A DNA stretch of 64,000 nucleotides. Source: a virus (taxonomy: Duplodnaviria > Caudoviricetes). Shown in pieces: positions 63,546 to 63,998 of this stretch. The position numbers were made by a program, and so were the translations under genes. The stretch spans positions 64,001-128,000 of the IMG/VR virus record IMGVR_UViG_3300010346_000241; one strand, written 5' to 3'. Numbering within the stretch: the stretch's first letter is position 1; each line of letters begins with the position of its first letter. The notes below the pieces were generated by a model. That model saw only the letters and a list, made by a program, of their open reading frames with translations. It was not told the origin of the DNA and ran no database searches.

Positions 63546-63998
63546 TTACTCCCAAAGAGGTTTGAAGAGTAACTCCTGTTTCATTGGTTCGAAGAGCATC
63601 TTCTGAGGAACCTGCTCAAAAAGCATTTTCTGTGGTACCTGTTCGAAGAGCATCTTCTGAGGCATAATCTCAAAGAGCATCTTCTGATCTGCCATTTCAA
63701 ATACAGACTTAGTGACGATAGGTATCTTCTTAAACTTGAGTCTAAGTCCCATACCCTTCATGATAGCCTGAACCTTCTCTGCAGATCTGTTACGTGCATC
63801 CATATCGATATGAATATCTACATGGTATGGATCACCTAGAAGCATATCCATAACACTTCTTCGTGCTCTAGGTGACAGAGACATCAGCATAGCATTGATT
63901 ACTACTGTCTCTGAACTACAGTGGAGGAAGATCATTTTCTCCATCTCACCCCACTTAACTGGAGTCTTAGTGATAGCACATCTATACTCCTTAGATTC
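63546..63998 (-). CDS. C-terminal end of an RNA polymerase beta-C subunit (gene starts beyond the window)
   Basis: The frame is open to the window edge: ESKEYRCAITKTPVKWGEMEK. WGEME corresponds to the beta C-terminal (R/K)xGEME motif. Confidence 0.8.
   Translation of the reverse strand, partial: ESKEYRCAITKTPVKWGEMEKMIFLHCSSETVVINAMLMSLSPRARRSVMDMLLGDPYHVDIHIDMDARNRSAEKVQAIMKGMGLRLKFKKIPIVTKSVFEMADQKMLFEIMPQKMLFEQVPQKMLFEQVPQKMLFEPMKQELLFKPLWE
63561..63686 (-). repeat. 27-nt coding tandem repeat (QKMLFExxP-type x4 + QELLFK)
   Basis: cagaagatgctcttt/ttc gag/gaa units spaced 27 nt apart, with synonymous variation. Confidence 0.9.

Follow-up and report, generated by a model that had tools for sequence, protein, structure and literature searches.

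A repeated C-terminal tail on the non-virion RNA polymerase of an AR9-like jumbo phage carries a lineage-specific tag that recurs on replication proteins

In phage T4, the DNA polymerase gp43 and the transcription proteins gp33 and gp55 carry interchangeable C-terminal tails that bind the sliding clamp (PMC2988020; PMC7892883), and phage Mu uses the clamp of its host for late transcription (PMC12867686). The motif by which bacterial proteins bind the beta-clamp follows the published pattern Q-phi-x-[LM]-[FL], in which position 2 is aliphatic (PMC11139829). Jumbo phages of the AR9-like and phiKZ-like types are described as being without a classical sliding clamp (PMC7824862), and in the nucleus-forming Chimalliviridae an RNase H-clamp fusion, named Rhc, co-purifies with DNA and RNA polymerase (bioRxiv 10.64898/2026.10.01.755736). 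Here, we describe a repeated peptide at the end of a jumbo phage RNA polymerase subunit and its relation to these systems.

The source phage is an uncultured AR9-like jumbo phage of about 229 kb. The window analyzed here is a stretch of 64,000 nucleotides, corresponding to positions 64001-128000 of the 229,448-bp record IMGVR_UViG_3300010346_000241. The gene of interest is encoded on the minus strand. Its stop codon occupies 63546-63548, and its other end falls past the window end; the product, translated from the whole record, is 742 aa long (genome 127546-129774). It matches the Pfam family RNA_pol_Rpb2_6 (Rpb2 domain 6; PF00562, 2.1e-14), and PHROG 3295 ("RNA polymerase beta subunit") spans residues 29-681 (9e-92). 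Among named relatives, the best matches are the non-virion RNA polymerase beta C-terminal subunits (beta-C) of the Bacillus phages AR9 and PBS1, at 30% identity over residues 28-679, and chain C of the solved AR9 enzyme (PDB 7s00) aligns with residues 33-677 (E 2.4e-66). The gene order is also common with AR9, with a UvsX-like recombinase upstream of beta-C and an NAD ligase downstream. Homology and gene neighbors thus bear out the assignment of the gene to RNA polymerase beta-C, which an earlier note on this DNA had made from the sequence alone. The UvsX gene is in turn adjoined, just past the window end, by a divergent tubulin/FtsZ-like gene (genome 131242-132579, minus strand). The AR9, PHROG, and PDB alignments all end at about residue 680, ahead of the tail. 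Beyond about residue 685, the protein consists of an extension that AR9 does not have: AR9 beta-C continues for some 20 residues past the core and then ends, and that acidic stretch is unrelated and holds no repeat.

Table 1. Features of the polymerase tail and further tag-bearing candidates in the window (window positions)
Feature	Position	Strand	Basis or remark
Non-virion RNA polymerase beta C-terminal subunit gene, 3' end	63546..64000	(-)	Translation
Five tandem tag units, residues 696-742	63549..63689	(-)	Translation; Tandem Repeats Finder; codon comparison
Tag units 1-4	63663-63689, 63636-63662, 63609-63635, 63582-63608	(-)	9 residues each
Terminal tag unit, closing the protein	63549-63581	(-)	Contains QELLF
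Linker with degenerate sixth copy (VFE), from core to repeats	63690..63716	(-)	Predicted disorder of the tail begins at about residue 687
Zinc-ribbon-like 138-aa protein, one N-terminal tag EPLFKVI at about 57129-57149	56751..57167	(-)	Motif match
418-aa ORF ending LLFKKI, possible tag carrier	25466..26722	(-)	Regular-expression match at the extreme C-terminus alone

The extension is made up of four 9-aa units with the motif QKMLF and a fifth unit with QELLF at the protein end, with a degenerate VFE copy directly upstream of the five units (Table 1). The translated string is exactly the one that the earlier note had read as five tandem QxxLF motifs. Tandem Repeats Finder reports a period of 27 with 3.4-4.2 copies and 71-77% matches. 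Units 2 and 3 encode the same peptide, while six of their nine codons differ, all synonymously; this argues for selection on the peptide, as the earlier note had proposed for the 9-aa repeat, and against a fresh duplication of the DNA. Sites of the form Q..[LM]F are rare in the phage, with 13 occurrences in a proteome of about 72,000 aa, 5 of which fall inside this 47-residue tail. In an AlphaFold2 model based on an alignment of 22 orthologs, residues 687-742 have a pLDDT below 50 and no secondary structure, so the last 55 residues or so of the subunit are predicted to be disordered.

Comparison with orthologous subunits shows which property of the tail is kept. The Q..LF motif is retained in beta-C orthologs of at least 75% identity, whereas at 36-59% identity the tails are built from different short motifs, again repeated, that follow the scheme small residue - P or L - aromatic - x - x - hydrophobic; other spellings found in relatives include PAFIKVE, NPFIH, and LF-x-Y-x-GD. 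Across 77 distinct orthologous tails, with a median length of 66 residues, a tripeptide recurs at least twice in 68 and at least three times in 33, in a spelling that is specific to the lineage, and in many relatives the tail is arranged as motif - helix - motif. Repetition, not the glutamine, is therefore the conserved feature of the tail: the comparison of C-termini that the earlier note had called for upholds the repeat in most tails, and upholds Q..LF in close orthologs but not in those below about 75% identity.

The tail motif is not confined to the beta-C subunit. Among the approximately 200 ORFs of this phage, the pattern F.P[LMFI]W occurs three times, each time at the extreme C-terminus, namely, in the polymerase subunit, in an acidic orphan of 136 aa, and in an orphan of 194 aa. 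A looser, PLF-type copy ends the C-terminal subunit of polymerase beta' (genome 52065-54209; the ortholog of AR9 gp153), two such copies end the DnaB-like helicase (genome 158326-160446), and another ends a PHROG 12252 protein (genome 142302-143162). An NPFI-type variant is found on an SF2 helicase and on a 60-aa protein. The tag is thus looser in this phage than in its relatives G003 and G004, with the xLF[EKR] and NPFI types side by side, and because two types coexist, the list of carriers is less certain here. The glutamine is absent from the other tag carriers of this phage. For the zinc-ribbon-like protein in Table 1, the positional counterpart in G004 bears G004's own tag near its N-terminus, and the two proteins have no BLAST match with each other.

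The two orphans, which end in LF-x-P-[LM]-W (136 aa, genome 48630-49040, minus strand; 194 aa, genome 168147-168731, plus strand), have no homolog in three sister genomes. The 136-aa orphan moreover has no match in five relatives, not even in one that is 94% identical, and is for that reason useless for the analysis of co-variation. These proteins could be strain-specific competitors for, or regulators of, the docking site proposed below.

The tag could be followed from one phage to the next in the complete genomes of G002, G003, and G004, three relatives with 41-44% identity to this phage in beta-C. In each of them, the orthologs of the carriers end in the tail motif of their own phage, spelled LF-x-Y-x-GD in G002, PAF[IV]K[VM]E in G003, and NPFIH-hydrophobic-acidic in G004. 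The pattern PF[IV]H occurs 17 times in 14 proteins of G004 and not once in the proteomes of G000, G002, and G003; likewise, PAF[IV]K occurs six times in five proteins of G003 and is absent from the other three proteomes. Almost all G004 carriers are DNA or RNA enzymes. They include the beta-C, beta-N, and beta'-C subunits of the late polymerase (with a weak match in the promoter-specificity subunit), both halves of the split DNA polymerase, the NAD ligase (two copies), the DnaB-like helicase, the SF2 helicase, and an SbcD-like nuclease, together with the PHROG 12252 protein and four small proteins. The G004 tags lie at C-termini and N-termini, and at an internal position (376 of 707) in one DNA polymerase half.

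Since position-weight matrices built from few repeats were too noisy for G000 and G002, they were replaced by exact short patterns and a permutation test, in which the best 7-residue match of each beta' C-terminal end was scored against every beta-C tail in 34 genomes, 30 of them further IMG/VR genomes. Cognate pairs of beta' end and beta tail score 21.5, compared to 17.3 for non-cognate pairs, and none of 20,000 shuffled pairings reached the observed cognate mean (p <= 5e-5). The cognate tail ranked first in 8 of the 34 genomes and among the top three in 15; motif sharing among related genomes acts against this test, and the signal was seen nonetheless. Two of the 34 genomes have no evident tag on beta'. 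AR9 has neither the tail nor a terminal motif common to its replication-protein orthologs.

A peptide that is uniform within a genome, respelled between genomes, and located on the disordered ends of unrelated proteins bears the signature of a docking motif with a co-evolving partner. It is short, lies in disordered ends, occurs in unrelated proteins, and co-varies between lineages, as is characteristic of short linear motifs (SLiMs). Judged by its sequence pattern, the tag is a lineage-private and putatively co-evolving docking motif that is multivalent on the polymerase.

The same data bear on two simpler explanations. The tail could be a degron recognized by a protease or a repeat expansion of no function, and its C-terminal location and the capacity of slippage to create tandem repeats would agree with this; the six synonymous codon differences between identical units, the repetition in 68 of 77 tails, and the co-variation of the tag across unrelated proteins speak against it, and five degrons on an essential enzyme would be hard to rationalize, which leaves this explanation very improbable. 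Alternatively, the tail might act within the polymerase, folding back on it or helping its split subunits to meet. Two to four subunits of the same polymerase are tagged, and the motif - helix - motif tails of many relatives might suit such a role, but the same tag is found on the DNA polymerase, helicases, ligase, nuclease, and small proteins, the AR9 polymerase assembles without such a tail, and the tail is here predicted to be disordered. A role confined to polymerase assembly thus seems to us highly implausible as well.

The bacterial beta-clamp motif, which the earlier note had taken as the defining feature of the repeat, accounts for part of it. All five units fit the published consensus at positions 1, 4, and 5, and hence Q-x-x-[LM]-F, but position 2 is K or E in each of them and does not fit. 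If the units nevertheless plugged into the pocket of host DnaN, the phage would be borrowing the clamp and the loader of its host, a strategy for which phage Mu offers a precedent in late transcription (PMC12867686) and which would suit a phage in whose genome neither a clamp nor a loader is detectable. Against this stand the loss of the glutamine in relatives below about 75% identity and from the other carriers of the same phage, and the PAFIKVE-type and NPFIH-type tags of the sister phages, which depart from the published motif. Bacteria in general share a conserved DnaN pocket, and from such a pocket one would not predict tags that are private to each lineage; this privacy argues instead for a co-evolving reader encoded by the phage. 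The clamp consensus as the hallmark of the repeat is thus not sustained, and binding to host DnaN appears unlikely. What does stand from the comparison with T4 is its logic, a multivalent motif common to replication proteins, and because the set of carriers matches that of clamp "toolbelts," the idea was right in kind. As for a clamp of the phage's own, the Pfam families PF00712 and PF02768 (DnaN), PF09116 (gp45), PF00705 (PCNA), and PF13177 (clamp loader) gave no match in the genome at E <= 1-5, in keeping with the published view of these phages as clampless in the classical sense (PMC7824862), so this option comes down to an unannotated candidate ORF, described below.

A further explanation is that the peptide serves as an address, sorting DNA-handling proteins to a replication compartment or condensate through an import or scaffold receptor, with the tail as an array of stickers. 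Nucleus-forming phages are reported to concentrate their replication, repair, and late-transcription proteins with their DNA (PMC12908238), and the set of carriers equals the set so concentrated; in addition, the tags sit on termini, and several small orphan proteins bear them too. The tubulin/FtsZ-like gene has orthologs in G002 and G003 and none in G004, and it is therefore not a core gene of the clade; for sorting to a compartment, it counts against the idea that this gene is missing from the very phage with the clearest tag system. Furthermore, we know of no linear import signal for phage nuclei, and no candidate for a receptor has emerged. We consider such an address tag unlikely. In a wider form, a lineage-private address code would direct the enzymes of replication, repair, and late transcription to the DNA of the phage, by way of a compartment or condensate or of a receptor that coats the DNA, for instance the clade-specific HU-like protein described below, and the tail would be the multivalent sticker that builds or holds the assembly; this form, too, we regard as rather unlikely.

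We therefore favor, as the likely explanation, that the beta-C tail is a multivalent form of a docking tag common to the replication proteins of the phage, that one co-evolving reader recognizes this tag, and that the polymerase is thereby held at replicating DNA. In this model, the tail would be a flexible string of five docking tags, and one or two tags would be displayed on the loose N- or C-terminal ends, and sometimes on the loops, of other enzymes working on the DNA of the phage: the beta' C-terminal subunit, the DnaB-like helicase, the DNA polymerase halves, and several small proteins, joined in the relatives by the polymerase beta N-terminal subunit, the NAD ligase, the SF2 helicase, and the SbcD-like nuclease. 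One common partner would read all of these tags and co-evolve with them, and for this reason each phage lineage would have its own spelling. With one or two tags, the replication and repair enzymes would be brought to the reader, while five tags on beta-C plus one on beta'-C would provide a high-avidity, flexible tether of the late polymerase to it; five copies would give avidity for a partner that is multimeric or arrayed on DNA. If the reader forms a ring or an array on replicating DNA, late transcription would be concentrated there and perhaps activated, as in T4, a functional parallel in which gp33 and gp55 link RNA polymerase to the gp45 clamp. The tag probably ties late transcription to the replication machinery via this partner; binding, stoichiometry, and the effect on transcription are what we infer from the pattern of the tags.

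That a single protein reads the tags is presumed, and so is its identity. One candidate is a 228-aa ORF (genome 26417-27103, minus strand), the start of which overlaps by 4 nt the stop of a DNA polymerase half (27100-29133). Its family, the members of which are about 200-230 aa long, is large (811 representative clusters). The ORF is present as one copy at the same position in all four complete genomes and in 26 of the 30 further tag-bearing genomes, and is not found in AR9. It evolves very fast, with 14-26% identity where the polymerase retains 48-60%. Position, size, overlap, fast evolution, and phyletic pattern all fit a candidate clamp. Profile comparison by hhalign with T4 gp45, whether as a single sequence or in a 7-sequence alignment, gave a probability below 1%, and comparison with AR9 gp130 gave 0.3%; a profile search of PDB sequences returned only noise, Pfam assigned no consistent family to 106 members, and no internal duplication is detectable. 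Overall, we tentatively regard the 228-aa protein as a possible reader, at somewhat less than even chances.

A second candidate is a clade-specific, highly conserved 199-aa protein (genome 139593-140192, minus strand) with 113 homologs and no Pfam family, which is present in all nine genomes checked. In its AlphaFold2 model, which is confident (pLDDT 86), the C-terminal part resembles histone-like proteins of the HU/IHF type (Foldseek probability 1.0, E 1e-3), and an extra helical part lies at the N-terminus. In the six genomes where the upstream gene was identified, the 199-aa gene is directly preceded by a gene of 44-63 aa, whose C-terminal part bears a tag that varies by phage. What points to the HU-like protein as a putative reader is this adjacency to a tag-bearing gene, and we give it a slim chance, comparable to that of host DnaN. 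A receptor of a compartment or condensate would have a somewhat better, though still small, chance, and the reader may otherwise be something else.

Other proteins were considered and set aside as hubs. An Rhc-type protein would combine an RNase H domain with a clamp-derived C-terminal domain of about 300 aa, a combination that this phage does not present: its only RNase H protein, of 278 aa, matches positions 73-178 of the 496-position PHROG 3265, that is, the RNase H part. The tubulin-like protein was rejected as a reader, being absent from G004. A phyletic screen for core proteins that are absent from AR9 yielded 36 candidates, and PHROG scans of 10 of these returned virion, baseplate, or exonuclease proteins, or nothing.

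Some further observations were made along the way. In AR9, the DnaB-like helicase (NC_031039.1, 3583-5268) has a long low-complexity tail with a final GIPF; a zinc-ribbon protein of G002 (26844-27206) ends in DDDDCPF, and the RNase H of the phage studied here (194282-195118) ends in TPF. The acidic ...[IL]PF tip of bacterial SSB is similar to these ends, which could reflect a second, older docking code. Elsewhere in the window, four adjacent paralogous genes of 410-487 aa (window 20094-25431; genome 84094-89431, plus strand) form a block that is kept in all four complete genomes and has no tblastn match in AR9; this block is probably structural.

How AR9-like or phiKZ-like phages coordinate their own late RNA polymerase with replication has, to our knowledge, not been described, and a full-text literature search found no published description of such tags in jumbo phages. 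A peptide code that is common to the replisome and the polymerase, and respelled by lineage, offers a direct handle on this coordination. Peptides synthesized to match the tag should capture the missing hub, and the natural variation of the tag amounts to a ready-made specificity experiment. If the favored model is true, the fivefold tag on a multisubunit polymerase would represent a new mode of coupling between transcription and replication.

The closest functional comparison is the toolbelt of the gp45 clamp in T4 and RB69. There, as here, a short peptide is found on the flexible ends of the DNA polymerase and of late-transcription proteins, two "arms" reach out from the polymerase, and the tags sit on linkers of variable sequence. 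Unlike in T4, where sigma-like factors of the host enzyme bear the tag, it is here carried by the phage's own multisubunit polymerase; it is also present in five tandem copies, has a lineage-specific spelling, and marks helicases and a nuclease as well, while sequence searches detect neither a gp45-family gene nor a clamp loader. With the bacterial beta-clamp motif, the tag shares a pentapeptide ending in LF, a location in disordered termini or loops (N-terminal, C-terminal, or internal), and, in the units of this phage, Q at position 1. It differs in that position 2 is not aliphatic, in that the glutamine is absent from most carriers and relatives, and in a conserved context after the F (F-x-x-hydrophobic-acidic) that lies outside the bacterial motif.

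The polymerase subunit itself is the ortholog of AR9 gp089 (PDB 7s00 chain C; PMC9209446), with 30% identity over residues 33-677 and the same gene neighborhood, but the AR9 subunit ends about 20 residues past the core without a repeat, and the AR9 replication proteins have no common terminal motif. Rhc, finally, likewise comes from jumbo phages that lack a classical clamp and have a DnaB-like helicase and a family-B polymerase in split form. Like the proposed reader, it is one accessory factor with ties to the DNA polymerase as well as to the non-virion RNA polymerase; unlike that reader, Rhc grips the polymerase thumb by a folded surface and uses no common peptide.
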